From the sequence record OL656110.1: 64,000 nt of DNA. One strand, written 5' to 3'. This document shows positions 9,681 through 38,070 of the stretch, piece after piece. The number at the start of each line of letters is the position of its first letter. Position 1 is the first letter of the stretch. This DNA comes from Escherichia phage vB_EcoM-RPN242. The position numbers and the translations under genes are program-made. The notes beneath the pieces are model-generated. The model had not been told where the DNA came from. It made no database searches and saw only the letters and a list, made by a program, of their open reading frames with translations.

Positions 9681-9690
9681 CAGTATTTAG
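9681..9690 (-). promoter_or_regulatory. late promoter motif CTAAATACTG upstream of scaffold gene
   Basis: CTAAATA about 25 nt upstream of ATG 9656; AAGGAAA ribosome-binding site. Confidence 0.45.
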
Positions 9691-9701
9691 TGAGGCTGAA
9701 T

Positions 9702-20478: not shown

Positions 20479-20507
20479 AGAAGGGCGGGAACCCGCCCTT
20501 CTTTTAC
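20479..20507. terminator. bidirectional terminator hairpin AAGGGCGGGAACCCGCCCTT
   Basis: Lies between convergent gene ends (plus 20477, minus 20504); T-run on the plus side. Confidence 0.65.
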
Positions 20508-21256
20508 CCCATGTAGAAGTCGATAGGGTACTGCTGACCAGTACGCAATTCTTCCTCTAAACGCTCGATCTCCGCTTCAGCCTCACTGAACATACTATCG
20601 CCATCCAGCTCGATACCGCCAGGGAGACGGATGCCTCTTGCCTTCTTGAGCACTTCTGCCCAGCGGCGCTTGACCAACGCAGTTGCATATGCCTTCAGCC
20701 ACATATCATTCCATGCTTCTTCATTACCCTCAACCTCTGGGTCGATGTTCTGGAAGCATTTGAACGCCAACACCTCGTCCTTTGTCAGGGCGAATTGTGG
20801 GTAGAGTTTGCGCTGGAATTTCTTGTAAACGAAGGTGCGTTTCACGTTCAGCACACTGGTGATGTCAGACAAACGCTGTTGCATTGAAACATAGTCGACC
20901 AAGCGGATGGAAACGAGGGCGGCCTTTGGTACCAACATGGCTTGGGCCATCTGCCATTGAGGGGTTGCCCAGTTACCGATCGATTCAATCGGAGGGCCAA
21001 CGATGACTTCAACCACGTCGTCGATGTCTTTGGGGAATTCGATGTAACCGTTGGTGATAGTTTCTTCAGTCACCTGGTGAACAAAGAATGCGTCCTGACT
21101 GCCATCACGATGATACTCCCAAAACTTCTGTAGAGCATCGTCTACAGCATCCGAAACTTGCGTTGGGTCAAGGTTGATCTGAATTACAGGTGCCCCCAAT
21201 TTCTTGAGAATGTAATTCATAAATCCTTTACGATCAACAATAGAATTAACGGCCAT
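20504..21256 (-). CDS. neck protein (gp13 position)
   Basis: About 250 aa from ATG 21256 (AAGGGGAA upstream); track start 21316 is over-extended. Confidence 0.45.
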   Translation of the reverse strand: MAVNSIVDRKGFMNYILKKLGAPVIQINLDPTQVSDAVDDALQKFWEYHRDGSQDAFFVHQVTEETITNGYIEFPKDIDDVVEVIVGPPIESIGNWATPQWQMAQAMLVPKAALVSIRLVDYVSMQQRLSDITSVLNVKRTFVYKKFQRKLYPQFALTKDEVLAFKCFQNIDPEVEGNEEAWNDMWLKAYATALVKRRWAEVLKKARGIRLPGGIELDGDSMFSEAEAEIERLEEELRTGQQYPIDFYMG

Positions 21257-21584
21257 TGCCATTCCCCTTGTTGCTCTGGATATCAGCGACGGTGATACGT
21301 AAAGTGCGAACGTCATCGGATAGACTGTTGCTATTGAGTTTCAACTCAGCAACGTTCTGCTTGACGTAGTTAACGTCTGTGTTTAACACAGCAATCTTCT
21401 CATTCATATCGTTCACCTTGGTGAGGATTAGGTTGACCTTGTTGGAGTCACGCTCAACCACATCAAGGCGATTCTCAAATTTACCCATCATCCAAACAAC
21501 CGAGCCAACAGAGACTATCGTCGCCGTCAGCACCCCGGTGAGGATCGCTTTCACATCGATCACAGTGTCAGTTTGGGCTGCCAT
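21246..21584 (-). CDS. small membrane-anchored coiled-coil protein
   Basis: 112 aa from ATG 21584 (CAGGAGG upstream); hydrophobic segment ILTGVLTATIVSVGSVVWMM. Confidence 0.45.
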   Translation of the reverse strand: MAAQTDTVIDVKAILTGVLTATIVSVGSVVWMMGKFENRLDVVERDSNKVNLILTKVNDMNEKIAVLNTDVNYVKQNVAELKLNSNSLSDDVRTLRITVADIQSNKGNGNGR

Positions 21585-21816
21585 CTTGGCCTCCTGACGG
21601 GAGTTCAATCCCGAGGTGTTCCGCCATGAGTTGTACCATCGCTGTCAGTTGATCTATTTGCGCTGCCTGCGCTGCAATAGTTCTGTCCTTTTCTTCCTGA
21701 TTTCGACGAGCGTTCAATGCTGCCAAACCGGCAGCATTGTCTGTGCAGATGATAGCCCCAGGGCAAGAGCTACTTCTCATCATCGATGCATGCCCTTGTA
21801 CTTTTACACCACGCAT
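21568..21816 (-). CDS. hypothetical protein, 82 aa
   Basis: ATG with AGAGGA upstream. Confidence 0.4.
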   Translation of the reverse strand: MRGVKVQGHASMMRSSSCPGAIICTDNAAGLAALNARRNQEEKDRTIAAQAAQIDQLTAMVQLMAEHLGIELPSGGQDGSPN

Positions 21817-21865
21817 GATAATATCCTCTGTTAATGGCGGGGCAACCCCGCCTTGTTAATACTAC

Positions 21866-24800
21866 TTATGCCAGAGCAATCAAACGGAAATCTTTGAATG
21901 ACGGCGGTGCTATGCGGTTGCCTCTGACCAGCAGGCGGATCTTCAGACCAACGAAAGGATTGGTGCTGTCTACAGTCTTGTCATACTCATATTCGAAGAA
22001 TGCAGAACCGTCATTGACCAGAGGGGATGTCGGTGTCACAGTTTCCCATGCCACATTATCCATCTCCTGACCTGCGCGCAGCAGTTTAACCTGCACAGTC
22101 ATTGAAGACTGAGAAGGTAGCATCGCGCCGAAGTATTGCTTCAGAGTGGTGCAAGGGTTATCGAATCCGATATCCTTGGTCACATAGCTGAACACATCTT
22201 CAAACGGATCCACACCGTAGGTGTTGAAGATGATAGTGAAATCATCACCGTCGATCATTGGAGCCGTGTAGACATTACTCTCGTTGCGAGTCATGGTTGC
22301 ACGAACCTGGAAGTCGCCCACCTGACGATAGATACCTTCCGTCGGCAGAGACACGTCCGTATCGGATTCGAACTCAACCCAATCAGAGAATGAGTTGGAG
22401 GTCGCATCGCGATAGCGGTATTCCAGTTTCAATACAGATCCTTCTAGGGCTGAATTGGTGACGCTTGCGTAGAACATGTCTACCAAGTAGTTGCCTAGGA
22501 AAGAAGCCGCTTCACCACCAATCTGACCGTCGGAGTCGGCGTTGGAACTCAGAACGAATTTGAACGTCGTGAACGTCGCATCAGTCACAGTGTGTTGAGC
22601 GTTCAGTTGCTCAGGAGTGAAACCGCAACCACCCGTCAACCCAGACAGAGTAACACTTTCACCCGCAGTCAGGCCATGCCCCGGAGCGTACACAGTAACA
22701 GTTGAAGAACCGTTGACACATTTCACGGTGTTCAGACCCAGAGGGCGGATCTTCGGACCGACTTTAGCATCGAAGGTCACGATGTTTGAACCAGCGGAGA
22801 AGTTACAGCGATACACACGGAACTTCATATCGGCAGTCTGGTTTGGAGTCCAGGTCGTACCATTTGAAGATGTGAAGAACACGCCAGTGTACGGCTGTTT
22901 GGCAATGAACTCGTTGGTCAGCAAGTTCTTCTTACCCATCTCTGCGATGTATGCGTTGTAGTCCTGAGTGTTGGCCAAGAGAACAATCGCGAACTCAGTC
23001 TGCGCCTGCAGATACACAGGATAATCAAACTTGAACATCGTCGGCACAGAAGAGTCTGTGGAGATGGAAACTTCTGATGGATTCAGAGTCTTACGAGTGA
23101 CGACAGTCGTCGCTGGCAGACCATTGCTCATCTCACGGATTTCCAGAGTGATCGGGATATCACGGGACTTGGTAGAGAAGAACACTTCAATACCTTCGAT
23201 GTATTCGCCGCCGATATTGGTGGCAACCATGAAGGACTGGGCGATAGGATCTTTCCACTTCGCGACTTCAACCGTCTCTGTTTTGTTTTCCGTAGACTTG
23301 GTCGCAGTGTATCCCAGGACGCGAGTGTTGACATAAGTCTTCTGGATGCCCTGTTTCTTGCCGAAGGACTTATGAACAGCCTCGGCATTGGTCAGGGTAT
23401 CATCAGCAGACTTGCTATCCACAGGACTGTCAGTCAGACGGAAGACGTTGTCGCCCGTGTTAAACTTGATAGTCTCGTTCTGAGGAACCGCAAACACACC
23501 TTTGATGTTACCGTTGGCATCAGTGTTCAACGCACCACCCAGTACACCACCGTTTGGGGTACAGTACGCGCTCACATCACGCCCAGAGAAGAACGGATAC
23601 ACACGAGTAAATGGACGCAGGCCTGTGGCTTCGAAGTTGATGTTCGTTTTGCGCATGTATGGGATAACCTGCGTTTCAACGATCTGCTCGCCAGTCAGGG
23701 TAGTGGTCGTCTTGTCGGTGTACGTGTACGTGGTGACGTCACGGGTAGACACAGTCGTGCGGTAGCGATAGCCCCACCATACACCACCTGCACCATGCGG
23801 TTCCCACACACGCTCAGACACAGACACAGTACGCCATGTGCCATACACAGAACCTTCTTTGATCGCACCACGGGTGTTGATCGTTTCGTTGACCACACGT
23901 GGGGTGACATAGTAGTTCTCAAACCAGTAATCAGTAGTTGGGTTCAGCTTCAAGAAACCTTCCCAGTTGAACACCGCATACGGGTTCACGTTGATGGTCG
24001 TGGTTGCATAGTCCTGGCGGACAGAGATCTCACGGGTGTAGTTGCATACAACCATGCCATCCTGAACGTTGTTCCAACCGACTGGCGTCAGGTCAATCGC
24101 GTTCTGCTGAACAAACGGGCGTAGGCGACCATTGTCAGTGTCGATTGAACCCACCCAGTCTGCAGACAAATCGTCGATCAGACGGAAGTCTTTGAACGGG
24201 TCTGCTGCGATACCGTTCTTGAAGCGCGGGTTGCCAGTAATTGGATCGAACACCTGTTGTGACATCGCCGAGGATTCCAGCTGAGACAGTGAGGTGTAAT
24301 ATTCGACATTGGAGATACGGGTCTCCAGTTTACCGATATCGCGCATCGTGTAGCGGCGGTTGTCGATAGTACGAATCTGGATGTCGTCAATGTTGGCCGT
24401 GTATGGTGGGATCATCAATTCATACAGGCGCATGCCGTTGTCTGGGATCGCAGGGGAAGCCAGGTTGTTGGAACTCACACCACGAGCAACGTTGAACACG
24501 CCGTTGTCTGCCAGATACACAGCATCAATACGAGGCAGATAGTACTCTGCATCTAGGATGATCGCGGTGTTCGGGCGAACCATGTCCGTGTCAGACGCTC
24601 CGCTGGTGATCTTGGGACGGAAGTCCAGACTGTCGGCCAACCCATACACAGTACCAGAACTGGATGAAACATAGTTCGGGATGTCTGGGTAGTTGATGGA
24701 CGAATAGGAGTCCGCTGTGAAGAAATCACCAGAGCTGTGAGCGAAATACTGATACACCACCGTGAACGTCCCTGAAATGGCTCCTGTGGACGATATGAGG

Positions 24801-26704
24801 TTAGAAAGGTAGTATGCAGCATCACGCTGACCGCCGTCCAGAGTGAAGTTAGAGGTGACGTCAGCGCCATTTGCGTTCTTCACGCTGATCAGCTTGTAAC
24901 CATCATGGTTCCCAAGTTGTGCGCTGGCCGCCGCAGTAAACGTCACAGTCTCGGTGACTTCGGTAACAGTCTTGGTCTTGATCGTCGCTGTGGTGCGGAC
25001 CATCAATGCCAACAGGTTGATAGACTGGTTGGCGTACCCCGCGCCCAGGGAAATCTGTAGTGCTGAACCAACCGGAGTACCAGCCAGGGACAGTCCCGAA
25101 GAGATATCAAACTGAGCTGCAGTGCCATCTGCCTTCGCTGCGGAGTACAGTGAAAACTCAGGGCTGAAGCTGTAACCCAGAGGAGCAGAAATTGAGCCTG
25201 CACCAGCGGCGTTCAACGTGATCTTGTTTGACCGCAGGACAGTGTAGTTGATGTCGATGGTGCCTGTAGGTGCTAGAGTCTTCACACCAAATACAGGCAG
25301 AGGGAAGATCAGGTCAATCGCCGAACTCTGGCTGAACTGATTGGACTCCAGTTCGCAAGAGAACATCGTTGTACCGCTTTCTTCATAAGCGACTTTGGTC
25401 ACCGTGCCCATGTCCCCAGTCACAACCAGGTCGCGCATATACAGACGGAATTCAGTACCAGAGCGCTCTGCCGAAATCAACAGGGCGGTGGCCTGCACAT
25501 CGCTGGATGCGTTCAGGAACTTGTAGCGGATTGTGCGGGAGACAACCGGAACCCCTTTGGAGTTCTTGGACACCAGATAGTTTCCAGTCGAAACAGCCAC
25601 AGGGTTGTTGTTCAGGATATCAGTGTCACGGGCTTTGTCAATTATGACCAGCTCTTCGCCGAGGTTTTCGATACGACGACCACGAACGTAGGAAATGCCT
25701 GGCTTCATAACCGCCACGAATTTGCTTTCATCACCGCCTTCAGCCGGAGTGTAAACGCCGCCGTTGTTGTTCTGTTTCAGATGTTCACGCAGGTCGATCT
25801 GGTGAGTAGAGACGTTGTAGTCACCATTGGTCTCATAGGTACGCTGAGCCATGGCGTCTTCGAGGATGTTGTACGTTGACTGGGTGACCATGGACTGAAT
25901 GCGACCGTCTTTCACCTTCGCCAGTTCGACGAAGTCGGCCACTTCTTCATCATAACCGTAGCGAGACAACACGAGGTCGACGCGCAGGCGATGCGCACCA
26001 GGGGCTTTAGAGTTCGGAGTACCCTGAGCATTGGAGAACAGACTTTCATCTTCTGCTTCGGTCACGATTGTTTCTGTAACTTTGAAGCCAATGCGGTGAG
26101 ATGTAGAGTTCGATGCGTTGTCTACGATCAGAGTGGCTGGTTCAACATCCAGGAACATACCACGAACGAAATAAACACCCTTTGTCATGCGAGCGACAAT
26201 CGAACCACCAACAGTATCGGCCACACCATAGCCGACACGGATGAAGTTATCGTTCACGTCATAGGTGTTGAAATATAGATTGTCGCCAGCTTCGAAACCG
26301 TCTGAACTACCACTTTCAGTCATCTCTAAGATGGCATACATTGTATCTGGCTCAGCTGGATAACGTTCCAAGGACAGGACGCGTGCTTTCGCATTGTTGT
26401 CCTTGCCCAGAACATAGAGTTCGGAGATACCTTCCAGATCAGTGAACTCACTACCACCAGCCAGAGTGAACTTCATGGACACAGCAGTGTTGGTGATCGT
26501 TAGGCCGCCGGGGATAACCATTGAACCGTCTTTGAACAGATGGTTGCCAAGTTTCTCCAGTTGATCCTGGAAGATGGTCTGCATCTGGTTCAGTTCACGC
26601 GTCTGAACTTTGATAGGTGCCGGACGGAATAGGATGCGCGAAAAACGCTTCTCTGGATTCCAGTCATCCCAATATGGGCGGCGGTTGAGGTTCATTTCTT
26701 GCAT
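21866..26704 (-). CDS. very large virion structural protein, about 1612 aa (tail or baseplate associated)
   Basis: Single uninterrupted frame; ATG at 26704 (GGAG upstream) after a CTAAATATCTC motif; sits between tailspikes and neck genes. Confidence 0.7.
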   Translation of the reverse strand: MQEMNLNRRPYWDDWNPEKRFSRILFRPAPIKVQTRELNQMQTIFQDQLEKLGNHLFKDGSMVIPGGLTITNTAVSMKFTLAGGSEFTDLEGISELYVLGKDNNAKARVLSLERYPAEPDTMYAILEMTESGSSDGFEAGDNLYFNTYDVNDNFIRVGYGVADTVGGSIVARMTKGVYFVRGMFLDVEPATLIVDNASNSTSHRIGFKVTETIVTEAEDESLFSNAQGTPNSKAPGAHRLRVDLVLSRYGYDEEVADFVELAKVKDGRIQSMVTQSTYNILEDAMAQRTYETNGDYNVSTHQIDLREHLKQNNNGGVYTPAEGGDESKFVAVMKPGISYVRGRRIENLGEELVIIDKARDTDILNNNPVAVSTGNYLVSKNSKGVPVVSRTIRYKFLNASSDVQATALLISAERSGTEFRLYMRDLVVTGDMGTVTKVAYEESGTTMFSCELESNQFSQSSAIDLIFPLPVFGVKTLAPTGTIDINYTVLRSNKITLNAAGAGSISAPLGYSFSPEFSLYSAAKADGTAAQFDISSGLSLAGTPVGSALQISLGAGYANQSINLLALMVRTTATIKTKTVTEVTETVTFTAAASAQLGNHDGYKLISVKNANGADVTSNFTLDGGQRDAAYYLSNLISSTGAISGTFTVVYQYFAHSSGDFFTADSYSSINYPDIPNYVSSSSGTVYGLADSLDFRPKITSGASDTDMVRPNTAIILDAEYYLPRIDAVYLADNGVFNVARGVSSNNLASPAIPDNGMRLYELMIPPYTANIDDIQIRTIDNRRYTMRDIGKLETRISNVEYYTSLSQLESSAMSQQVFDPITGNPRFKNGIAADPFKDFRLIDDLSADWVGSIDTDNGRLRPFVQQNAIDLTPVGWNNVQDGMVVCNYTREISVRQDYATTTINVNPYAVFNWEGFLKLNPTTDYWFENYYVTPRVVNETINTRGAIKEGSVYGTWRTVSVSERVWEPHGAGGVWWGYRYRTTVSTRDVTTYTYTDKTTTTLTGEQIVETQVIPYMRKTNINFEATGLRPFTRVYPFFSGRDVSAYCTPNGGVLGGALNTDANGNIKGVFAVPQNETIKFNTGDNVFRLTDSPVDSKSADDTLTNAEAVHKSFGKKQGIQKTYVNTRVLGYTATKSTENKTETVEVAKWKDPIAQSFMVATNIGGEYIEGIEVFFSTKSRDIPITLEIREMSNGLPATTVVTRKTLNPSEVSISTDSSVPTMFKFDYPVYLQAQTEFAIVLLANTQDYNAYIAEMGKKNLLTNEFIAKQPYTGVFFTSSNGTTWTPNQTADMKFRVYRCNFSAGSNIVTFDAKVGPKIRPLGLNTVKCVNGSSTVTVYAPGHGLTAGESVTLSGLTGGCGFTPEQLNAQHTVTDATFTTFKFVLSSNADSDGQIGGEAASFLGNYLVDMFYASVTNSALEGSVLKLEYRYRDATSNSFSDWVEFESDTDVSLPTEGIYRQVGDFQVRATMTRNESNVYTAPMIDGDDFTIIFNTYGVDPFEDVFSYVTKDIGFDNPCTTLKQYFGAMLPSQSSMTVQVKLLRAGQEMDNVAWETVTPTSPLVNDGSAFFEYEYDKTVDSTNPFVGLKIRLLVRGNRIAPPSFKDFRLIALA

Positions 26705-26744
26705 TTTGATGCTCCATCGATAGGTGCCATTATAGAGATATTTA

Positions 26745-26755
26745 GTATACAACCA
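26745..26755 (-). promoter_or_regulatory. late promoter variant CTAAATATCTC
   Basis: About 40 nt upstream of ATG 26704. Confidence 0.5.
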
Positions 26756-27114
26756 ACCGAGGAATAGAAAGAAATAAGCCCGAAGGGGCTTTGATTATCT
26801 TTCTGTGGTTATGGTCATGGATTCAAGACCTCCGCATTCTTCAGGAACTATTGCAGGGGTGCTGGTACAGCCAGGGAATGGAGAACGCAAACAAGGCGAA
26901 CCAATGGAACCACAGTAGTAGGTTCAGATGCTAGTGTTAAGGTACAGGGTACAGACATTGCCAACAGAGATAACGTATTAGCCACTTACACACTTGGTTC
27001 GACAGACCCTTTCATGGTAGAAGGTATTCAATTGGGTATGTTTAATATCTCTGGGCAAGTAATCACCTTAACAGCAGTATCAATTAGGGTAATGCAAACA
27101 GTAAATTCTATATA

Positions 27115-27140
27115 AGAAAAGACCCCAAATGGGGTCTTAG
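27115..27140 (-). terminator. terminator hairpin AAGACCCCAAATGGGGTCTT after tailspike gene
   Basis: Minus strand: hairpin followed by TTTCTTATA. Confidence 0.6.
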
Positions 27141-27155
27141 TTTTACAGTTATAAG

Positions 27156-29381
27156 TCACGCTTCTGGCGAGGGGATAGTAAACCAATCGGACGCTGTTCC
27201 TGTTGTAGTGCCTTTATGCCTCCAGCCACTAACAGTTCTTTTTACCGTAGGGCTATCCTGCCAACCTGTTGCCGGGAGAAAGAAATTCCTCACTGGGGCG
27301 GGGTTTAACGCTCCAGTAGCTGGCGTGGCGGTTCCAGTCTGAGATGATACGAAGGTGGTTACTGTTGAGTAATCTATTACGTTATCATCATGAAACGCAT
27401 TCGTGTATAGATTTGCGGGTGCTGAGTTAACGAAGAATGCCGTAGTAACCCCGCTAACCTTGTTTCTATATACGTTGTTCCATCTACAGTTACCACCAAG
27501 GCGTATACCCTCAGAATCAGAAGCCCCCGCAATGGTGTTACTATCTATGTCACAATATTGGAAACTTTGAGCTACTAAAAACCGGCAACTATTACGCGTA
27601 ACCCTGCCGTAAGTAGACGTACCATTGGCATAGTAAACTGTTATATTGCCAGATGTTAAACAGTCTTTAATCGAGAAATTGGTCATAGGGCTAGTAAGGT
27701 ATACACTGCCAGTACCTTTCACTGTAATGTTTATATTTTTTCTAACTGTCAGGGTGTATGCGGGCGCGCTATACATACTGACTATATACCCGTTCGCCCC
27801 TGTATTTACAGGGACATTTGCATCCACTGTCACATAATCACAGTCCTTAATTAATATCGCAGCGGTTGTTTGAGCGCCAGTCTTTACGAATCTAATAGAC
27901 GGGTTTGTGATGGTAAAGTTCTGGCATTGCTCCATAAAGATAACGCCTGATACTTGATCGTCTGCCGCCAGCGAGTCTACAACAATACGCTGAGCACCAA
28001 ATGCCCCCATAACCCCATACTTTCCGCCTTTAATATAATCAGCATGGGTGTTGCAGTCGAAGCATTTTGCACCAAAATATATACCTCCGTTGTTGGCCGT
28101 AGGTTTTAGGGTGTTATGGGATGTACGGATGTTACGGCAGCCAGCATAAGATATTATTTGCGCATCCCCACCGGTCCCTCCAATGTGGGTCGTACCTGTA
28201 ACAGTACAATCTGTAGATCCGTAACCAAAAAATATATTACCATTTCCGACACGCCCGGTATGGGTAGTGTTGTGGTACACCACACCGTACGCGTTATCAT
28301 GCCTTGAACCGCCATTTCCATTATAATCAAAAACAGTACCATGGAACTCTATAAGCGAAGCCCCCACAGATTGGTACATGTAGCTAGACCCTGACGCAGA
28401 ATTTTTTAAGATTCCCCCGATGAACTTAGTAGCGTTGCCTTTTATAAGATAAATAACCGAATTGGTGGTAGTTAGGTCCCACGGTAAAGCCGTTGCTAAA
28501 TTTACGGTAGCACCTGATATGGACGAGATTAAAAAAGATTCGCCTTGGTATCCGGTTACATCCGGATTCTGTGCGTTGGCAATATACCAAGCGTCACTTG
28601 TGTCCTCAGTGCGTATTACCAACGCCCGAGTATACCCAGTTCCTGCCACCTCAGATGTTAATGTGATGGACGTTGCTCCGGAAGCCGCAGGGGAAAGCAA
28701 GCTGAATTGGCTCTCGCTGACGAAATTAAGAGCATTAGCGGTCAATGATGTCAACCCAGCACCGTGACCGAAAGTAAAAATCGTACCTTTTGGTATGTTG
28801 ACTTGTGAATGGGAAATTGTCATGCCCGGAGGAACAAAAACATTCCCCGAGTTAATGGCTAACTGTAAACTAGATGCCTCATCAGACCCATCACCGACAA
28901 CCCCAAAAGCACGCACGTCCCGTAAATTAGGATCTGTCTGCGGCTTCCAGTCAGCGTTACCAACTGGGTTAGTTCCTGCGACAATAGTTACAGGTAAGGA
29001 ACCTAAGTAGGTGTAACCTATGCCATTATAAAATAGTAATTCATTTCTAGTATTCACAACTAAACCAGTAGCAAACGAGTCGGATAGGTTCACGAACTCT
29101 CTACGTGTAGCAGCCAGTTCCCCCAAATCAACTGTGCCTGCGGAATGAACCAGGACTGCATGTTTATTGAGGCTTACGGCAGTGGTTCCTACTGGAAGTA
29201 CAGGTAATGAGTAAGCACGTTGGGTAGACTTGTCATAGATTACTTTGTAGCCACCCAAGTCCACTCCCACAGCAAAGTAGACTACTTCATTTTGCTTAAC
29301 ACCAAACTTACGAGCAATGGCTTGCTTATTGGTAAGAATACCAGTAGAGCCTTTACCGCCTTGTGAGAACATTTCGTTCAT
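27156..29381 (-). CDS. tailspike protein (741 aa)
   Basis: N-terminal module (KQAIARKFGVKQNEVVYF...YKVIYDKSTQRAYSLP...VDLGELA) is shared with the other tailspike genes. Confidence 0.7.
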   Translation of the reverse strand: MNEMFSQGGKGSTGILTNKQAIARKFGVKQNEVVYFAVGVDLGGYKVIYDKSTQRAYSLPVLPVGTTAVSLNKHAVLVHSAGTVDLGELAATRREFVNLSDSFATGLVVNTRNELLFYNGIGYTYLGSLPVTIVAGTNPVGNADWKPQTDPNLRDVRAFGVVGDGSDEASSLQLAINSGNVFVPPGMTISHSQVNIPKGTIFTFGHGAGLTSLTANALNFVSESQFSLLSPAASGATSITLTSEVAGTGYTRALVIRTEDTSDAWYIANAQNPDVTGYQGESFLISSISGATVNLATALPWDLTTTNSVIYLIKGNATKFIGGILKNSASGSSYMYQSVGASLIEFHGTVFDYNGNGGSRHDNAYGVVYHNTTHTGRVGNGNIFFGYGSTDCTVTGTTHIGGTGGDAQIISYAGCRNIRTSHNTLKPTANNGGIYFGAKCFDCNTHADYIKGGKYGVMGAFGAQRIVVDSLAADDQVSGVIFMEQCQNFTITNPSIRFVKTGAQTTAAILIKDCDYVTVDANVPVNTGANGYIVSMYSAPAYTLTVRKNINITVKGTGSVYLTSPMTNFSIKDCLTSGNITVYYANGTSTYGRVTRNSCRFLVAQSFQYCDIDSNTIAGASDSEGIRLGGNCRWNNVYRNKVSGVTTAFFVNSAPANLYTNAFHDDNVIDYSTVTTFVSSQTGTATPATGALNPAPVRNFFLPATGWQDSPTVKRTVSGWRHKGTTTGTASDWFTIPSPEA

Positions 29382-29669
29382 AATGACCTCTTTGTTTTTC
29401 TAAGTAAGCCTCCCAACGTGGGGAGGCATGTAAGTAAAGTTATTTACCGATTCTCAATTCAGCTAACCAACCTAGAATTTGTTTATTGATTCTAGACGGG
29501 TAAGCAGCCTCTAACCATGCACATCGGTCTGGTATTAAACCTCACCTTGAACCAGCAGGAGTAACAAATTCTTTCCATCCTTTCTGTAGAACTCAGGTAT
29601 ACGCTTCTTTAATACCATTATTACCAACAATACTTGCATACACAACAGACACTAAACTCTATATAAGAA

Positions 29670-29688
29670 AAGGTCCCGAATGGGACCT
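29670..29688 (-). terminator. terminator hairpin AGGTCCCGAATGGGACCT
   Basis: Just past gene end 29700; minus strand followed by TTTCTTATAT. Confidence 0.55.
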
Positions 29689-29699
29689 TTATAATAAAA

Positions 29700-32108
29700 T
29701 TAAGGGCTAACCCGATACCACCCGTCGTAGCTAATATACAAACGTTTACCGGACACAACTGCATCAATGCGAAGCGTTTTTTCACCTTCAGTAAAGAACG
29801 CTCCTCCAGTGTTCCCGATGTTCATTCGAAAGCTGGCTGGAATATTTCCAGAGGTAAAACCGATGTCCCCGTTGTTCACCCCTGTTACTGCTATGTATGC
29901 GTAATCCCGCGCGACAGGAAATCCTGTCACAGATATGAACTGACTGGTGCCGGAACTCCATTCAATTGTCACATCAAACACACCGAATATATGAGCAAAA
30001 TCTCCGACATAATTTATGTTATGTACGGTATACTCGCCGTATGATATCACCGCATTGGTGCCTGATTGAACTGTAATTTCAGGCGAACCGGGGTCATTCG
30101 CTAAGAAAGTACGGTCTGGTCTGATTTTGGCGGATGAATTCGCCACCGTTCTGGTAACGTTGTTGAGCCAACCGGCCTCCACCGGATCCCCATTTCGCGT
30201 AGACCTTACAATGTTGTTACGCAATATTGCGTTAAAAAACGTAATATCGGAGATGTAAATATTATGGTGCTGCCCGGCTACGGCCCCGCCAAACAACATC
30301 CCATTAGAGTTGTACTCATAAGATACGTTGTTCTCAATGATGCTGTTGCGCGCCACTCCATTTAATTCTAGCCATGATATGTTAGACGGGCCTGTGTAAT
30401 CAGAACCAAGTCTAATACTGGTGTTATTGGTGAATGAGCTATGGTCGAAATTATCCAATCTCCAGTTAATACCCAGAGTGCCTTCTTGACCATTCCCAGT
30501 TACCGTTACCCCTAGCAGGTTCTGTAATATATAGCCATAACACACTCTTGTCCTGTCCGGATAATAGTCGTTCCTGTTAGTGTGATCACAGGCATTAGCC
30601 TCTATAACAGAGTATTTAAGATCCCGATAGCAATGCCCATAATCACGGCAACTATTACTATAGTTAGTAGATATTACGCATGAAGTGCCGTTGTTTATAA
30701 ATATCCCACCGAGACATGCGGTAACGCGGTTGTTTCCTACTCGCGACGCAAATACAACAGGGAGAATTAGCCCATACTTGCAATCGTAAATATAGACGTC
30801 TTCTATCGTGGCGTCGGATACCACGCCTGCATTTACGATACCAAATTCTACCGCGTGGTTTTCCGTTGTAGTTTTTGTCCCATGCAGAGTAACCCCTGTG
30901 ATGACACCGGACCATCTTGAACTACTAGAATCCCCTAAACAAATAACCGCATTCATATCTGTAGGCAGGGTTCCGGTATATCCTCCAGATAGTGCAGGCG
31001 CCGTCACCAGAACTGTAACGGTAGTGGATGTCGTTTTCGTTATAGTAACTGATTCGCGACTTCTCCCTATTACTGATACATTCGATGGTAGAGCAAGAGT
31101 ACTGCTTATTTTATAGTTACCATCCGGGAAATAAACCACGCCTTTTGTGGTGCTGGCATAAGCTATAGCTGCTTTTATAGCTACCGTATCATCAGTAGCT
31201 CCGTCACCAACAGCACCAAAATCTTTAACGTTATAGTAGTCTTTAAAATGGCTATCAATGGTTCGCTTAATTGCAGAAGAAACACCAGATAAGCCAGAAT
31301 TTACTAATGTTCCCCCATCAGTAACCATAGCCGTTTTATATACCTGCAACTCATTCTCCACTGGAGTTACATCATTGGGTGCAGGGAGCAGGTCAACAAC
31401 AATCCCACCAGGATTGTATGTTAGTTGGTCACCATTAACGGAAGAAATATATACGTTAGTAGGCAATGTAGGCAACCCATATGCCTTCTGCTCACTAACA
31501 GAATAAATAATCTTCTTACCATTGAGGGACTGAGTAGTATCGGTGCTAAGAATTACTTCACTATCTTTAACGTTAGTAGCACGAGCGATTTCTTGAATAC
31601 TTCGGTCAAACAACGGACTGATATTCGGTTGTTTAACAGACATTTCAGCGACTACCCAAACGCCTGCTGTCAGCGCAGTTTGTAAAGACACTTTCCCTGT
31701 CGTGCTGTCATAGGAATATTCAATTTCGGGTGTTTTGTACTCACCACCGATATAAAGAGATTGGACTCCATAAGATGTGTAATCAGGAGTGAACTCGGTT
31801 TCACCTCCTATAGCCTGAAACTTATAGATTCGAATCCCAGTTTTATAATCTTCTGGAGACAGAATCTTATCAAACAGACAGAACACAACGTCACCTTTGG
31901 ATAATGCGCGTCCGAGATTTAACGTATTTCCATCGATTTCAAAGTTGTCTAACGGAACTTGCATACCACCGTTGATTGTGACTATACCAGTGACAGGGTA
32001 GAAAGGGAGGGAGATAAACTTCTCTCCGCCCGTTGCTGTGTAAGTGTATGGAATCTGGTGCGGAGCTGTTACGACCGCTCCAAAGATGCTCTCGACGTTT
32101 CTGGTCAT
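29700..32108 (-). CDS. tailspike protein (about 802 aa)
   Basis: ATG at 32108 follows GGGGTATTTTCAA; shares the module IARATNVKDSEVIL...KKIIYSVSEQKAYGLP with the others. Confidence 0.7.
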   Translation of the reverse strand: MTRNVESIFGAVVTAPHQIPYTYTATGGEKFISLPFYPVTGIVTINGGMQVPLDNFEIDGNTLNLGRALSKGDVVFCLFDKILSPEDYKTGIRIYKFQAIGGETEFTPDYTSYGVQSLYIGGEYKTPEIEYSYDSTTGKVSLQTALTAGVWVVAEMSVKQPNISPLFDRSIQEIARATNVKDSEVILSTDTTQSLNGKKIIYSVSEQKAYGLPTLPTNVYISSVNGDQLTYNPGGIVVDLLPAPNDVTPVENELQVYKTAMVTDGGTLVNSGLSGVSSAIKRTIDSHFKDYYNVKDFGAVGDGATDDTVAIKAAIAYASTTKGVVYFPDGNYKISSTLALPSNVSVIGRSRESVTITKTTSTTVTVLVTAPALSGGYTGTLPTDMNAVICLGDSSSSRWSGVITGVTLHGTKTTTENHAVEFGIVNAGVVSDATIEDVYIYDCKYGLILPVVFASRVGNNRVTACLGGIFINNGTSCVISTNYSNSCRDYGHCYRDLKYSVIEANACDHTNRNDYYPDRTRVCYGYILQNLLGVTVTGNGQEGTLGINWRLDNFDHSSFTNNTSIRLGSDYTGPSNISWLELNGVARNSIIENNVSYEYNSNGMLFGGAVAGQHHNIYISDITFFNAILRNNIVRSTRNGDPVEAGWLNNVTRTVANSSAKIRPDRTFLANDPGSPEITVQSGTNAVISYGEYTVHNINYVGDFAHIFGVFDVTIEWSSGTSQFISVTGFPVARDYAYIAVTGVNNGDIGFTSGNIPASFRMNIGNTGGAFFTEGEKTLRIDAVVSGKRLYISYDGWYRVSP

Positions 32109-32140
32109 TTGAAAATACCCCATAAAGGATTTGCCAATAT

Positions 32141-32151
32141 GGGGTATTTAG
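32141..32151 (-). promoter_or_regulatory. late promoter CTAAATACCCC with inverted repeat
   Basis: CTAAATACCCCATATTGGCAAATCCTTTATGGGGTATTTTCAA-ATG; 12-bp arms. Confidence 0.6.
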
Positions 32152-32185
32152 TCTGAACTAATAAATTTATAAACAAATGTATAGA

Positions 32186-32220
32186 GAAACCCCGCCGAAG
32201 CGGGGCTAGTTTTTATTTGT
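32186..32220. terminator. hairpin CCCCGCCGAAGCGGGG with T-run on the plus side
   Basis: Same hairpin core as at 7347 and 34851; located just past the end of 32227..34776. Confidence 0.55.
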
Positions 32221-32226
32221 GGTGTG

Positions 32227-34776
32227 TCAATTGAGTTTTGATATCTCTACAGTTATACCGAATACGTTATTCGGTCTACTTGTGGTTGTAGCTATAGTTA
32301 GCTCAAAGAAATGCGCGTTTATATCTGGTGACTGTGTGTATCCCGCAGAATTAGTTAATGTTACATTGAGTGATATGTCCGAATCTGTTACGCCGTTTAT
32401 GCGAATTTCATTCACAGGTCCTGATAGCGACGCGGCGGAAGTTGCACCTATCTTATGATTTACCAGGTACGTCTTCTCAATATAAGCAACGGATCCCCCA
32501 TTATTATATGAAGAGCACGACTTAACTTTTACCAGTAGGTTTTGCGATTCTAATGTTCCATAGTTATCAAAAATCTTTAAAACTTTGTTAGCAGATGCAC
32601 CAGAAATGCTTCCACAGTTCACTTCCCATAATGTAGTTCTATTCGCATTCGGTGCGTTCTCATACATGTAGAAACTACCATCTGGAATTACCCTGTTGTT
32701 TATTAATGTTTTCAGATTTCCGCAGTTACCTATTAGTCTCACGTGGGCATTGATGTTTGTTAATGTTACTGTTTTTATTTTTGATTCTGTGTTTGCGCAC
32801 CTAATAGAACCACCCATGCAGTTAATATTTTCGTAATAGACATTACCAGCTTGCCACGGTAACGCGAAAATATCGTCCGCCCGGTTTTTATAATTGAGCG
32901 CAACATTAGCAGCAATCCAGTCTCGGTGCATAGAAGAATCACCAGTAAATGTGACGATACCTATTTGAGGGTCTTCTGCTGGGGTTGTGCCCAAACTGGC
33001 AACTATATTGATATCTGTCAGCTCACCACCAAGACATCTTATATTTGGCATATCATATTCTTCGGTGGCAAATACGTTACGCCATTTAGCATCAAAACCA
33101 GCGTGCGAGTCCATCGTGGCGAAGTTATTATAACCGAAGCACTTTTTAACCTCGAACTTGTTGAACCATGTTGTTGGGGAGGCAGCATGTCTACAGAATG
33201 ATGCTGTGATGCTATCAACAACTGTATCGTAAGTGCCCGCCGCAGGGCTGATAGGATACTGACACCTATTAGCAACTACATTGCCAATCCTTGGCATATA
33301 GCAAGCTATTAATAAGTACGAGGAACCACCACTGGTTTCCACGTCACCAGAAAAGACTGGCATATAAAAACCACGGAACCATGAAGATGAAACCCCAAAT
33401 GATGCGGTGCCTATATTAACAAAAGATGAGTTATCACGGTTGTTAAAGTGCTCCATCTTGAAGTTATTGAAAATCAACCTTACCGGTTTGTACCTGTTAA
33501 CCTTAACGTTGTTTGCTACTAGATGATCGAATAGCGCTGGCCTATCAACTTTCATATTAGAACCAGATTCACGCTCTGCAATAAACAACTCCCTTGAGTT
33601 AAAATTCCACTGAGTCTCGTACGTCTTGTTGTCCTCTATATAAATCAAATCACCCTCTACAGCCCCAGCCACCCGCGCAACTGTGGAGCCGCTTACCATA
33701 TCAGCTAGAAGTGAAGACTGAATCTCGGTTGATGACAGGTGCATTTCCACCCCATCAGAGGCCCCGAACAGCTTTATGCCAGACCAATCAACAACTAAGT
33801 TTTTATCAATCGACAATAGTTCTATATTACTGGTTACAGTAACCTCACCGACTGACCTGAAGTATCCACGGCACCCGGATGTGTAAGCTACAGTCAGGAA
33901 TTCAGATATAGTCTGGCCTGATACAGACCCTCCAGCGGTTATGCCGAAATCATCTCCGCAAATCGCGCTTATAGGGGTAAATGATGTTAATGCCGGCTGG
34001 GAAGCAGACCTGACCCACATTGTACCGCCGGTTGAGCATACCGAATCTACAGGTAACTCTGCCTCCGTGGACGCAATCATCTCGTAAAAAGAGGAGAAAT
34101 GTTTGTATATTCCAGCAACTTTGTAACCACCAGTTATAGGATTAGTCCCAGCGACAACTATACCAGCAGGACCGGAGAACGCCTTACCAGTGCGTTCTTG
34201 TAGTAGCACATCGTTGGCGTTCACTAGTGTACCGCCCGACTCAAAGCTACCATCTACTAGATTATAGCCTGCTGTTGCATAGCTACGGCGCAACGCCTCA
34301 CGGGTCTGTGTACTTGTGAACTGATTGGAGCACCTAATATAACCACTCCCTGGAAGAGTAGGGTCTGTGCCAGCAGGAACTACTTTAGGTAATGCCCCAT
34401 CCCAACGGTACTTCCCATCTGTAAAGACAACTAATTCATTCTTGGTATTAACTGTTACACCGGTATCAAATGACCCAGACAATGTGACGTACTCTTCACG
34501 AGATACAGCCAATTCCCCGAGATCTACAGAACCTGCTGAATGTACCAGGATTGCCTGTTCGTTCAGACTTATCGCAGTCGTTCCTGAAACAATACCTGAA
34601 GGAAGAGAATAAGCCCGTTGGGTAGACTCATCATAAATTACTTTAAATCCACTGAGATCAATACCAGCAGTGAAATAAATGACTTCGTCTTCTTTGACAC
34701 CGAAATTTCGAGCGATAGATTGTTTGTTAACTTCTATGGAAGTGGAGCCGCGTGGTTGATTGAATTGAGAAATCAT
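32227..34776 (-). CDS. tailspike protein (849 aa)
   Basis: Shared N-terminal module; contains a 160-bp segment nearly identical to one in the next gene. Confidence 0.7.
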   Translation of the reverse strand: MISQFNQPRGSTSIEVNKQSIARNFGVKEDEVIYFTAGIDLSGFKVIYDESTQRAYSLPSGIVSGTTAISLNEQAILVHSAGSVDLGELAVSREEYVTLSGSFDTGVTVNTKNELVVFTDGKYRWDGALPKVVPAGTDPTLPGSGYIRCSNQFTSTQTREALRRSYATAGYNLVDGSFESGGTLVNANDVLLQERTGKAFSGPAGIVVAGTNPITGGYKVAGIYKHFSSFYEMIASTEAELPVDSVCSTGGTMWVRSASQPALTSFTPISAICGDDFGITAGGSVSGQTISEFLTVAYTSGCRGYFRSVGEVTVTSNIELLSIDKNLVVDWSGIKLFGASDGVEMHLSSTEIQSSLLADMVSGSTVARVAGAVEGDLIYIEDNKTYETQWNFNSRELFIAERESGSNMKVDRPALFDHLVANNVKVNRYKPVRLIFNNFKMEHFNNRDNSSFVNIGTASFGVSSSWFRGFYMPVFSGDVETSGGSSYLLIACYMPRIGNVVANRCQYPISPAAGTYDTVVDSITASFCRHAASPTTWFNKFEVKKCFGYNNFATMDSHAGFDAKWRNVFATEEYDMPNIRCLGGELTDINIVASLGTTPAEDPQIGIVTFTGDSSMHRDWIAANVALNYKNRADDIFALPWQAGNVYYENINCMGGSIRCANTESKIKTVTLTNINAHVRLIGNCGNLKTLINNRVIPDGSFYMYENAPNANRTTLWEVNCGSISGASANKVLKIFDNYGTLESQNLLVKVKSCSSYNNGGSVAYIEKTYLVNHKIGATSAASLSGPVNEIRINGVTDSDISLNVTLTNSAGYTQSPDINAHFFELTIATTTSRPNNVFGITVEISKLN

Positions 34777-34802
34777 GATAATACCCCAAGAATGACCAAT
34801 AT

Positions 34803-34813
34803 GGGGTATTTAG
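34803..34813 (-). promoter_or_regulatory. late promoter CTAAATACCCC with inverted repeat
   Basis: CTAAATACCCCATATTGGTCATTCTTGGGGTATTATC-ATG. Confidence 0.6.
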
Positions 34814-34848
34814 TCTGAACTAATAAATTTATGAACAAAGTTATAATA

Positions 34849-34872
34849 AGAACCCCGCCGAAGCGGGGTTTA
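34849..34872. terminator. hairpin CCCCGCCGAAGCGGGG
   Basis: Third copy of this hairpin core; just past gene end 34876. Confidence 0.55.
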
Positions 34873-34875
34873 TTG

Positions 34876-37800
34876 TTATGATGCATTTGCTGATTTGTTT
34901 AAATACCATCCGTAGTTCGTTTTTATTAACTCTACAATCTCCCCGTTTGTCTTGTATTTTGTCTTCCCGGTTTCTGTATTATACATAATTCTGTCGGTGA
35001 CAGAGACGCCGGACGCTTGTTTTGAAAGCGTCACAACAGTGTTGCCGGATAACGGAAGTATTGATATCCTTTGTCCGATATATCCACCAGTGATTGACGT
35101 TATCACTGATCCATTACTTCCAGCGTCGAGATAAAATACGTCGCAAGAGTTGGCATCTAATGTAGTTGTTTCAGTTGTTAGCGTTTTCGTTGGCGACGAA
35201 ATACCAAGCACAAATGATGAACCGTTCCATGTATATTCTTTGCCGTCAGCAAGACCAATCACTCGCTCGTTGATTCTTAAATCGGGTGCAAAAGTCTTTC
35301 TAATGTCAACAATTTTAATAGTGCCACAAAACGGGACAGGGATAATCACGTTACCTGCAAGCCTGTTAATAGTGTAAATTGAATTGCTGATCGTCCACTG
35401 TCTACCGTTCCACATACTCATAAATGAACCAGAAGATAGAAGCACGGTTGAACTGTAACCTGCTTCCAAAGCATTTGTGTCTGTTATCATGCCGCGATCA
35501 ATAGGATTGCTAAAATCGTCAGAGCAGTCGAATACTCTAATGTTTGCACGTCCTTCATAATTACCTGATTGACCAACAGGTGCGATAACAAAGAGATAAT
35601 CCTTATCAAAACCATAATCAGGGCCAACGCGTAAGAACGACGCCATACAGTTAGTGGTAGGGAACTGTCCTTTTACAACCCACTTTCCACTAGAATCTTG
35701 CATCAATAGCTTTTGAATGGCTATTTTGTACGGCTTAGTGGTCGTATCTGCTGCGCGCTCAATGGCAAACGGTGTTCCGTCATAAAAATTTCCGAAACCA
35801 ATTTCACCGCCAGATGTACCGAGAGTATCGGTATCCGTGTCTTTCCTGACATCTTCACCGTAGGTGTAGTTACCGCTATCATCAACTGTGATATACCCCT
35901 CAACTATTCCGGTAGATAGTTGAGTTAAATAATAATAAGGAATTGCAGGCTTGCCATTTATGTACCCGACTTGTGTAGGTGCAATTGATGAGAAGTAAGC
36001 ACCAGATGGTTTAACCAATGGCGTAATATCAACAGGGGTGCTCCATGTATTGCCACCATCCTTTGATATGACATATTCAATAGTTGATGTTGTGTCAGGG
36101 TTAGTTCCTTGTTGTGCATGCCCCCACCCAGTAATCCCCTTCATTGATGTAAAGAAACAATACAAATATCCATCAAGATTATTTAGGAATAGTACCGTTT
36201 CAGAAGTGGCATATCCTGGCCCTTTGTTAACAACAGTTCCAGTGGTCCAGTTCACACCGTTATCATCAGATATTAGGTAATCAATGTGCATAGGTGTGCC
36301 GTCCTGTCCTGGGTCAATATTAGCACCATCCTTCACTGTGTAGATACATACCACCCGCCCACTTGGAAGTGACACCGCTTTTGGTGCAAAGTTAAATACA
36401 TTCTCCACATAAGTTTGCAACTGTAAGCGCAAATTATTGTTAAAGCTTCTTGAGTATTTATTCCCAAAAGCGAAATTAAATCTATTTTTTGCAATTGATT
36501 GCCTTTTGTAAAGCTCAAAATCTTTATCCTTGACTGCTCCGTTAACTAAATCAACTCCGTCATCATCAGCCAGGTCACTTCTTAAACTTACATCACCAAC
36601 ACTTAACCATTTTCCTGCACCAGTACCACCAGCACTCCCTGGGGTTGAGCCAGCAGAAACCTCTTTAGGCAATTCCCCATCCCAGCGATACTTCCCATCT
36701 GTAAAGACAACTAATTCATTCTTGGTATTAACTGTTACACCGGTATCAAATGACCCGGACAATGTGACGTACTCTTCACGAGATACAGCCAATTCCCCGA
36801 GATCTACAGAACCCGCTGAATGCACAAGTACAGCGGAAGGACTAAGACTGACAGCAGTAGTACCAGGGGCAATATCAGCAGGCAAGGGATAAGCCCTTTG
36901 CGTCTCCTTGTCATAAATAACTTTATACCCACTTAACGCAGCACCAACACTAAAATAAACGACCTCTGTATCTTTAACATTGGTTACACGAGCAACTTCC
37001 CGCAAAGTATAATCAATTTGATTGTAGATGTTTGGTGTTCCATTGATAATTACAACAACTTCATCCTCTGGTTCCAGTTCTTGCGCAAGAGTGATTTTAC
37101 TGGTTGATGGATCGAATGTGAATCCCAGATTTTTATACTGGCGACTTCCGTTTATATCAATGGCCGGAACATCGTCAACAACGACGTCCAACGTGATTTC
37201 GGTTTCACCGCCAATCGCTGAACCCCCATTATAGACCCAGGTAATCGTAGAAGAACCAGAACCACCGACATTACCCAATTGAATAGGAGTATATTCAATC
37301 ACCTGAAGTTCTGTGCTGGCTGGCAAAGAAGGACTGAAAGTGATTACATTCCCATCTAGTGAATATTTGGATTCCGCAAGACGTTTTCCGTCAGCATACA
37401 CGTCCACGATTGTTGGTGGAGTATTGAGAGCGACAGAACTTGTTTCAGACGCCAAAATTTTTGTAAAGATTTCACGACTGTAGACACGGCCTTGGCCAAG
37501 ACCGACGCCGGATGTAATAATCCAACCTTGTTCAGGTCCAGACCAAGTGAACGTTGCTGATACGTTATCAGTTGTTATAGCCATGTCTTCAGTGGAGCCA
37601 TACAAATTATTTCCAGAAGGAGACACGGTCAATGGGTAAGTGGCAAATTTCCCATAAGCATCACAAATAGTAACGGAATCCCCAATACGCGTAGGGGAAG
37701 GGAGAACCACTGTAGATGCCCCTGTGGTATTATTAATGAGATAGCCTCGCCCTTCAGTGAGCGTTGCCGTAGAGGCATGCGGAAGGACTTCCCAGCGGAT

Positions 37801-38037: not shown

Positions 38038-38070
38038 TTCAAATACCCCTAAATGTGTTCGTTTCATCTA

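Follow-up and report, generated by a model that had tools for sequence, protein, structure and literature searches.

The window, that is, the whole 64,000-nucleotide (64-kb) stretch of DNA that was analyzed, belongs to the genome of an Agtrevirus-like Ackermannviridae phage and carries a large gene, vriC (also named vrlC), between its tailspike and neck genes (Table 1). The earlier note had described a single 4.8-kb frame at this place, and the frame proved to be real: the ORF listing gives one minus-strand ORF (21866..26752; 1,628 amino acids [aa] if begun at an upstream TTG), and the ATG, which follows a Shine-Dalgarno sequence, yields a gene of 4,839 bp encoding 1,612 aa (calculated mass, 177.3 kDa; calculated pI, 4.9). 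The annotated coding sequence of phage AV101 (WJJ54140.1) has the same length and likewise lies between tsp1 and a gp13-like gene. Nucleotide identity ranges from 97.5 to 98.6% for the Agtrevirus-like phages PC3, PH4, A221, and AV101, with PC3 and PH4 at 98.6%, and the Ag3 ortholog is 92% identical. In published Agtrevirus genomes, the gene is annotated as "virulence-associated VriC protein" (VriC/VrlC). It is therefore an already known and catalogued gene, the VriC of Vi1-like (Ackermannviridae) phages, under a misleading name; AV101 WJJ54140.1, Ag3 ORF206, Det7 gene 210, and the tsp-flanking gene of CBA120 are the same gene and differ from the present one by a few percent of sequence drift and nothing substantial.

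The location between tailspike and neck genes was also as described. Four tailspike genes lie upstream of vriC in the direction of transcription, and two small ORFs followed by gp13-like, gp14-like, and gp15-like neck genes lie downstream. The order of the upstream genes (gp6-like, Baseplate_wedge, a gene encoding 396 aa at 38090-39280, TSP4 to TSP1, and then vriC) places vriC past the wedge genes, within a baseplate/adsorption module, and comparable arrangements are found in Staphylococcus phage 812, Delftia phage PhiW-14, and cyanophage S-MbCM6. PhiW-14 retains the order vriC, small ORF, gp13, gp14, and gp15, and in a T4-like cyanophage, a gene of the tripod family discussed below is located between gp8 and gp13. 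On the T4 map, the corresponding interval is occupied by genes 9 to 12 and wac.

The earlier note had also credited the gene with its own late promoter and terminator. The promoter gained support from the distribution of the CTAAATA motif, which occurs 15 times in the window versus 4.9 times expected (at least 15 copies in 0 of 100 shuffles), always on the local coding strand and, in 13 of the 15 cases, 25 to 60 nt upstream of a start codon. CTAAATA is the late-promoter core described for the T4-like phage Aeh1 (PMC1524935), and we infer that the copy upstream of vriC has the same role. Neither the two small ORFs nor the gp13-like gene (together 20504..21816) have a CTAAATA motif of their own, and a sigma-70 promoter scan around vriC was uninformative, with matches rarer than in shuffles. 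The terminator claim held in part. A GC-rich hairpin indeed follows the stop codon (dG, -16.4 kcal/mol; z = -3.2), and the next gene begins at 21816, but on the vriC strand the hairpin is followed by ATTAACAG instead of a T-run, and a terminator scan called it on the opposite strand only. Without that T-run, the hairpin falls short of a canonical terminator, and at most it would terminate weakly or stabilize the RNA as a stem. A second, bidirectional hairpin, just upstream of the promoter, would by its sequence shield vriC from tailspike transcripts. An Rfam scan detected no RNA family near vriC, its sole matches being two tRNAs at 44.9 to 45.3 kb.

Table 1. Features of the vriC locus, in window coordinates
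Feature	Position	Strand	Remarks
gp13-like neck gene	20504-21316	-	Downstream of the two small ORFs
Small ORF	21246-21608	-	Up to 120 aa; downstream of vriC
Small ORF	21568-21816	-	82 aa; PHROG "virion structural protein"; downstream of vriC
GC-rich hairpin	21836..21852	-	GGCGGGG-TTG-CCCCGCC; 13 nt past the vriC stop; 7 G-C pairs, loop of 3
vriC/vrlC coding sequence, including stop codon	21866..26704	-	Tripod-family (DUF4815) baseplate protein
C-terminal beta-sandwich domains, aa 1425-1612	21869..22432	-	Lectin-, CBM-, and PHR-like predicted folds
Small beta domain, aa 1351-1421	22442..22654	-	Resembles endosialidase/"Phage_spike_2" domain
Conserved beta-sandwich module, aa 1150-1310	22775..23257	-	DPIAQSF...IREMxNGxP...; HMMER alignment to 812 residues about 780-949
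DUF4815 region, aa 1-932	23909..26704	-	Pfam; colinear HMMER stretches to 9euf_0; Foldseek E = 6e-23 to 9eui_Q
Predicted 29-residue helix, aa 787-815	24260..24346	-	Candidate third spine helix
Predicted helix 1, aa 35-56	26537..26602	-	DSSP of model; candidate "spine" helix
Shine-Dalgarno sequence GGAG	26712..26715	-	Read directly from sequence; spacer of 7 nt before ATG at 26704
Late-promoter-like motif	26735..26745	-	CTAAATATCTC; core CTAAATA at 26745..26739; 35 nt upstream of ATG
Bidirectional terminator-like hairpin	26776..26791	.	Just upstream of promoter; called on both strands; minus-strand tail ATTTCTTTCT
TSP1	27156-29381	-	Named by position
TSP2	29700-32123	-	Named by position
TSP3	32227-34776	-	Named by position
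TSP4	34876-38067	-	Named by position; carries baseplate anchor and XD1-3 branching domains
Baseplate wedge protein	39283..40137	-	284 aa; Pfam Baseplate_wedge, 1.4e-146

The neighboring genes differ in how widely they are shared. At least 80% of vriC is covered in 98 of 106 phage records, whereas no record covers at least 80% of the adjacent, mosaic tailspike cluster (27156..38067). Some records label the gene product a "tail fiber protein," as in vB_CECAV_050, and in one proteomics study it is described as "previously associated with host range" (PMC10892097). A tail fiber or receptor-binding protein that determines host range is, however, a very improbable identity for VriC: the gene is nearly invariant (97.5 to 98.6% nucleotide identity) among Agtrevirus phages with differing tailspike clusters, conservation is uniform along the protein, with no hypervariable end or variable C-terminal module, and host range in the Ackermannviridae follows TSP subtypes (PMC8432352). 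As judged from sequence comparison, VriC is a core part conserved across hosts, next to mosaic tailspikes, and not a host-range determinant.

Orthologs of VriC are prominent in virions. Ag3 ORF206, whose mass of 177.2 kDa matches the 177.3 kDa calculated here, gave one of the six strongest bands when CsCl-purified virions were analyzed and yielded 36 peptides by mass spectrometry (PMC3121705), and the Kuttervirus ortholog ranked among the top five proteins by spectra in Sajous1 virions (PMC10892097). These data support the earlier description of a large, late-expressed virion structural protein, which is not absent from virions, since the Ag3 ortholog was detected in purified particles. Taken literally, "virulence-associated protein" would denote a phage-borne virulence factor of the bacterial type, a meaning whose sole argument is the inherited name VriC/VrlC; the name presumably goes back to a similar gene in the vrl island of Dichelobacter nodosus. 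The presence of the protein in virions, the location of its gene in an operon of late structural genes and downstream of a late-promoter motif, and its homology to a solved baseplate protein effectively refute that meaning.

The homology was found at several levels. VriC matches Pfam DUF4815 (PF16075) with an E value of 8.2e-61 (206 bits versus a cutoff of 30), a profile that phage 812 Gp122 spans in its entirety. When VriC was compared with the PDB by phmmer, the sole match was a 1,152-aa protein of phage 812 (E = 8e-54, in four colinear stretches), and a profile of 32 homologs matched the same protein with an E value of 1.4e-118. The chains in question (entries 9EUF, 9EUI, 9EUJ, and 9EUK) are named "DUF4815 domain-containing protein"; the 1,152-aa chain is the tripod protein by gene order (gp6-like gene, 1,019-aa arm scaffold, 173-aa arm segment, and 1,152-aa gene), and the tripod is called gp119 in the structural paper (PMC13433997). 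According to the literature, the protein has a counterpart in phage A511. Foldseek searches with AlphaFold models of VriC (pLDDT of 79 and 80) returned the 812 tripod chains as the only significant matches (E = 6e-23 and 4e-23). By both sequence and predicted fold, VriC is homologous to the 812 tripod protein over its whole length, the colinear homology reaching past DUF4815 and including the conserved C-terminal beta-sandwich modules, and within the phage tripod family (DUF4815, "adsorption-associated tail protein") it represents the Ackermannviridae. Both are virion proteins encoded downstream of gp6-like and gp7-like wedge genes. Full-length homologs of about 1,600 aa with 31 to 39% identity are present in Vibrio, Ralstonia, and Delftia phages; that of PhiW-14 is 36% identical and located at the same place.

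Within the protein, aa 1 to 932 correspond to the first 611 residues of the 812 tripod. The monomer models place helices at aa 35 to 56, 281 to 288, and 787 to 815, all in the most conserved blocks, with pLDDT values below 50 for aa 281 to 288. The region of the first helix is highly conserved, with invariant Q34, R36, E37, Q42, and Q48, and the last lies in the best-conserved block (RRYTMRDIGKLExRIxNVEYYTSLSxLE), aa 751 to 850 having the highest identity among distant homologs. On these models, the helices are candidates for the tripod spine. The module at aa 1150 to 1310 is common to all tripod-family proteins and had a tblastn match in 1,699 phage records. The stretch holding the small beta domain is longer than its 812 equivalent, and endosialidase matches in VriC are confined to one small noncatalytic domain. 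The predicted C-terminal domains (aa 1425 to 1612) are candidate surface-contact domains. Pfam found no tailspike depolymerase domains (parallel beta-helix or Tail_spike_N/head-binding) in VriC, unlike in the four neighboring genes.

The likeness to the 812 tripod protein thus comprises end-to-end colinear homology, helices in the best-conserved blocks, and CBM-, lectin-, and PHR-like beta-sandwiches, but the two proteins also differ. VriC is 460 residues longer (1,612 versus 1,152), with extra sequence at about aa 73 to 202, 380 to 711, and 1309 to 1452, identity in structural alignments is just 13 to 26%, and the host is Gram negative, unlike that of Staphylococcus phage 812. Because of the added length and the Gram-negative host, details of the rearrangement may differ from those in 812. 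The docking partner in 812 is the 1,019-aa arm scaffold, with two docking loops, together with a gp8-like arm segment protein, and no full-length counterpart is evident here. A weak pairwise BLASTP match (58 aa; E = 0.015) to the N terminus of the arm scaffold (gp7-like) marks the 284-aa wedge protein as a candidate attachment partner of VriC; the 396-aa protein had no BLASTP match to the arm scaffold, and phmmer searches of the PDB with both wedge-adjacent proteins gave nothing useful. Pfam LysM was detected in neither VriC nor the 812 protein, although a LysM-like "hook" has been described in the latter.

The tripod assignment bears directly on the earlier reading of the gene, which compared its position to that of T4 fibritin and took its product for a large fiber or scaffold on which tailspikes are assembled, a structure that would sit at the neck or baseplate. 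The gene does lie between tailspike and neck genes, in the map interval of T4 genes 9 to 12 and wac, and the protein is large and found in virions. The fibritin analogy itself did not stand, the fold, the family, and the structural relatives being those of baseplate tripods. T4 wac encodes 487 aa, and VriC is 3.3 times longer. T4 fibritin is a trimeric alpha-helical coiled coil with a C-terminal foldon, located at the neck, whereas the VriC models are beta-rich (about 49% strand and 7% helix), without a coiled-coil shaft, and the VriC homologs are baseplate proteins. VriC has no sequence or fold similarity to fibritin; the two are alike only in being expressed late and in mapping roughly to the same place, upstream of gene 13. 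Fibritin_C had no Pfam match in VriC at an E value of ≤0.1, and no fibritin was present among the structural matches. On fold and family, we reject an identity as fibritin or neck whisker.

As for a scaffold for tailspike assembly, that role belongs to TSP4, the N-terminal 338 residues of which match the anchor and the XD1-3 assembly domains in the solved structure of CBA120 TSP4 (7REJ; E = 1e-195; PMC8825819). T4 gp10 and the CBA120 TSP4 N terminus are, like VriC, parts of the peripheral adsorption apparatus of contractile tails, but they have XD domains, and no gp10-like XD domain was found in VriC by Pfam, PDB sequence search, or fold searches, in which neither TSP4-N (7REJ/7RFO) nor gp10 was matched. 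Because TSP4 holds the anchor and XD domains and because PhiW-14 keeps the gene at a locus without large tailspike genes, we reject the scaffold role, and the fibritin-position reading as a whole is highly unlikely. The PhiW-14 locus leaves any tie between VriC and tailspikes unsupported.

Instead, we consider it likely, by analogy with phage 812, that VriC belongs to a conserved tripod or "prong" assembly at the edge of the baseplate, which possibly touches the cell surface in a second step. In this scheme, vriC would be transcribed with the late genes from its CTAAATA-type promoter motif. By homology, the protein would trimerize around three spine helices, and the trimers would attach at the outer edge of the baseplate wedge with their lectin/CBM-like beta-sandwich domains facing the cell, where they would probably constitute the prongs seen under Ackermannviridae baseplates. 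Variable tailspikes would first cut the O-antigen or capsule, and the conserved tripods would then touch the cell surface and rearrange, which would help fix the baseplate in its post-contraction form. VriC would thereby provide a host-independent second adsorption step, in a role resembling the one played in T4 by the gene 9-12 module. A 2024 review states the prong hypothesis, notes a resemblance to A511/phi812 baseplate proteins, and reports that Ackermannviridae are without T4 gp9 to gp12 (PMC11721090). Our literature search for an Ackermannviridae baseplate structure or cryo-EM study found none.

VriC might also be a purely architectural part that braces or shields the baseplate, with tripod-tripod contacts holding the post-contraction state and no receptor binding. 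Compatible with such a part, it is conserved very evenly among phages that infect unrelated hosts, including Escherichia, Salmonella, Klebsiella, Dickeya, Vibrio, Ralstonia, and Delftia; the contracted 812 baseplate is said to be stabilized by tripod-tripod contacts, and the related phage Det7 releases its DNA on LPS alone, according to the review (PMC11721090). However, the C-terminal half of VriC is modeled as lectin-, CBM-, and PHR-like beta-sandwiches, and the 812 equivalents face the cell, with wall glycans as their suggested ligands (PMC13433997), although carbohydrate binding by the CBM/lectin-like domains of 812 is itself no more than a proposal. The family is also widely annotated as adsorption associated, which is an annotation and not a test. 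We therefore regard an exclusively architectural role as unlikely and favor the surface-contacting tripod. Compared with the T4 short tail fiber gp12, VriC would be a functional analog only, through a conserved second-step surface contact coupled to a baseplate switch; the two genes occupy corresponding map intervals, and no homology was detected. A further-reaching version, in which the VriC tripods are the prongs and, whatever the host, serve as a universal second-step adhesin that also triggers contraction, in place of the missing gp9 to gp12, is possible, and we advance it tentatively while leaning against it.

In practical terms, vriC is a landmark for finding tailspike clusters in the Ackermannviridae, whose use in biocontrol has been widely proposed, and the name "virulence-associated protein" misleads safety screens of therapeutic phages, since the gene encodes a structural protein of the baseplate. 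With the 2025-2026 structures of phage 812 as a template, direct tests become feasible both for the prong hypothesis and for a second, possibly conserved, receptor step. If the tripods do serve as a universal trigger, this would explain how tailspikes can be swapped freely, even with G7C-like podophages, around one conserved trigger, and a single tripod machine would be common to the Gram-positive Herelleviridae, the Gram-negative Ackermannviridae, and T4-like cyanophages.

The single long frame reported in the earlier note is there, on the minus strand, and its position 26704 is an ATG. From this start, the 4,839-bp vriC gene, exactly the CDS annotated in Escherichia phage AV101, encodes a product of 1,612 aa (177.3 kDa and pI 4.9, calculated from the sequence). 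Megablast placed the window in the Ackermannviridae, subfamily Aglimvirinae, near Agtrevirus; at least 80% of vriC is covered in 98 of the 106 matching records, with nucleotide identities of 98.6% to phages PC3 and PH4, 97.5 to 98.4% to A221, LHE287 and AV101, and 92% to Shigella phage Ag3. vriC is an already known gene, correctly observed; it is named “virulence-associated VriC protein,” “VrlC,” “tail fiber protein” or “hypothetical” in databases and has served as a conserved landmark flanking the tsp cluster (PMC8432352; PMC10791037; PMC11721090). The guess that it is structural was right: VriC is a virion structural protein, with orthologues found in virions by published proteomics. The feature under the Ag3 match is orf00206; of the SDS-PAGE bands analysed from CsCl-purified Ag3 virions, the top one was ORF206 (predicted mass 177.2 kDa), identified by 36 peptides at 39.6% coverage (PMC3121705). 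In Kuttervirus Sajous1, VriC is among the top five virion proteins by spectra (PMC10892097).

Features located in the window
Feature	Position	Strand	Basis or remark
vriC ORF from upstream TTG	21866..26752	-	ORF listing
vriC CDS from ATG	21866..26704	-	ATG at 26704, with GGAG ahead of it at a spacing of 7 nt
CTAAATA copy of vriC	26745..26739	-	35 nt ahead of the gene
Terminator between tailspike genes and vriC	26791-26776	-	Terminator scan, good
101-codon open frame	26810-27115	+	Opposite strand to vriC, within 26792-27118
Terminator between tailspike genes and vriC	27138-27119	-	Terminator scan, good
Four tailspike genes	27156-38067	-	Upstream of vriC in transcription direction; Pfam and PHROG matches
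396-aa protein gene	38090-39280	-	Between gp7-like wedge gene and TSP4
tRNA gene 1/2	44865-44938	+	
tRNA gene 2/2	45194-45279	+	

VriC is a homologue of a baseplate tripod protein. Its sole match among all PDB sequences was a 1,152-aa “DUF4815 domain-containing protein” from Staphylococcus phage 812 baseplate entries (E = 8e-54), aligned in four colinear stretches across aa 4 to 1592, and a profile from 32 homologues improved the E value to 1.4e-118. Judged by tblastn and the 812 gene order (gp6-like, 1,019-aa arm scaffold, 173-aa arm segment, 1,152-aa gene, RBPs), this chain is the tripod protein of a 2026 EMBO J paper. VriC matches Pfam DUF4815 (8e-61) and, below threshold, Phage_spike_2 (aa 1351 to 1421); the PHROG families that it matches have no annotated function. 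Its structure, predicted as two overlapping pieces from 58-sequence alignments (pLDDT 79 and 80; 49% strand, 7% helix), gave significant Foldseek matches to 812 tripod chains only (E = 6e-23 and 4e-23). The helices at aa 35 to 56, 281 to 288 and 787 to 815 fall in the most conserved blocks and, as modelled, would fit the three “spine” helices of the tripod, to whose leg, base and fin domains the 812 authors assign Cwp84 and CBM61 folds (PMC13433997). The family comprises 4,963 clusters at 50% identity (E ≤ 1e-3), and about 1,700 of the 50,697 phage records carry the conserved module at aa 1150 to 1310, among them records of Herelleviridae, cyanomyophages, and Vibrio and Rhizobium phages. The 812 RefSeq record (NC_029080) annotates the tripod gene at 6635-10092 as two separate CDS, Gp122 and Gp123; because the deposited chain is a single 1,152-aa protein, the record has a frameshift or annotation break.

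The four tailspike genes have Pfam Tail_spike_N and pectate-lyase-like matches and PHROG tail spike matches, and the largest, TSP4, matches crystal structures of the CBA120 TSP4 N terminus (E = 1e-195). Downstream of vriC lie two small ORFs, then gp13-, gp14- and gp15-like neck genes, terminase, sheath and tube. On the T4 map, genes 9 to 12 and wac fill the interval ahead of gene 13. The assignment of vriC to the wac position is therefore fair as a map interval, although that interval suits gp12 equally well; the further reading as a fibritin analogue is rejected, VriC having neither a coiled coil in its models nor a fibritin signal in the family and fold searches. Delftia phage PhiW-14 carries a 1,615-aa homologue at the corresponding place, followed by a 67-aa ORF, gp13, gp14 and gp15, with no large tailspike genes at this locus, and the T4-like cyanophage S-MbCM6 has a 2,625-aa tripod-family protein between gp8 and gp13. 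From these gene orders, the position of vriC is a conserved slot of the baseplate/adsorption module, unrelated to wac. The proposal that VriC is the scaffold on which the tailspikes assemble is also rejected: Pfam, the PDB sequence search and the fold searches gave no XD domains for it, and the branching scaffold is TSP4 together with TSP2 (PMC8825819).

CTAAATA, described as the core of late promoters in the T4-like phage Aeh1 (PMC1524935), occurs 15 times in the window against 4.9 expected, a count reached in none of 100 shuffles; all 15 copies follow the local coding strand, 13 of them 25 to 60 nt upstream of a start codon (consensus CTAAATAcccc). At the motif level, this enrichment and placement support the late promoter proposed for vriC, and we infer that its CTAAATA copy is one. 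In many copies (e.g., 34813, 32151, 3394 and 47671), the “cccc” is followed by a complementary “ggggtat” directly ahead of the start codon, which suggests that a hairpin in the 5' leader is conserved among late transcripts; it is missing from the vriC copy, CTAAATAtctc. As for the terminator proposed after vriC, a GC hairpin does follow the stop (7 GC pairs, −16.4 kcal/mol, z = −3.2), but no T-run follows it on the gene's strand, and the terminator scan calls it on the opposite strand only. The window motif search gave no CTAAATA for the three genes that come next; hence, partial read-through past the hairpin is likely. The two upstream terminators set vriC apart from the tailspike transcripts.

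The tailspike cluster is strongly mosaic, with 50% the largest share covered by any phage record and none reaching 80%; the 72.6-kb phage “nithesis” has 37% of it at 95% identity, a pattern suggesting recent exchange of tailspikes between phage families. The stretch of about 330 bp that separates the vriC promoter from the last tailspike gene (26792-27118) holds no startable ORF and is 87 to 91% identical to G7C-like podophages (Gamaleyavirus: Bp4, pSb-1 and UE-S5b); nithesis matches it as well. The UE-S5b counterpart forms the 3' portion of a gene of 627 bp that comes directly after the tailspike genes and is labelled “tail needle knob.” By these matches, the stretch looks like a truncated remnant of a podophage/Agtrevirus tailspike-module exchange. 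The 396-aa protein beyond TSP4 (PHROG 3838, function unknown), a candidate adaptor joining the wedge to TSP4 or VriC, has an internal repeat (STYNTKMASLDNS / STYNAKMTSVDNS) and no PDB relative that we found. The two tRNA genes sit where the leftward late structural block gives way to rightward genes.

In phage 812, twelve trimers of the tripod protein attach by a crevice to loops of the gp7-like arm scaffold protein; receptor binding makes them rotate, with shifts of tens of angstroms in the leg, fin and base domains, and the distal domains extend toward the cell wall (PMC13433997). By homology, VriC would form trimeric tripods at the baseplate periphery, and a 2024 review proposes that prongs seen in micrographs are VriC (PMC11721090). 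The only gp7-like protein in the window has 284 aa and weakly matches the N terminus of the 812 scaffold. VriC identity is even from end to end, with no variable end, and full-length homologues occur in Vibrio, Ralstonia and Delftia phages at 31 to 39% identity; VriC is a conserved core part, not a host-range determinant. Because of this conservation, and because T4 gp9 to gp12 are missing from Ackermannviridae (PMC11721090), the most economical mechanism is that VriC may, once the tailspikes have acted, make a conserved second-step contact with the surface and lock the baseplate. The 812 structure now offers a template against which the role of VriC in Ackermannviridae can be tested.
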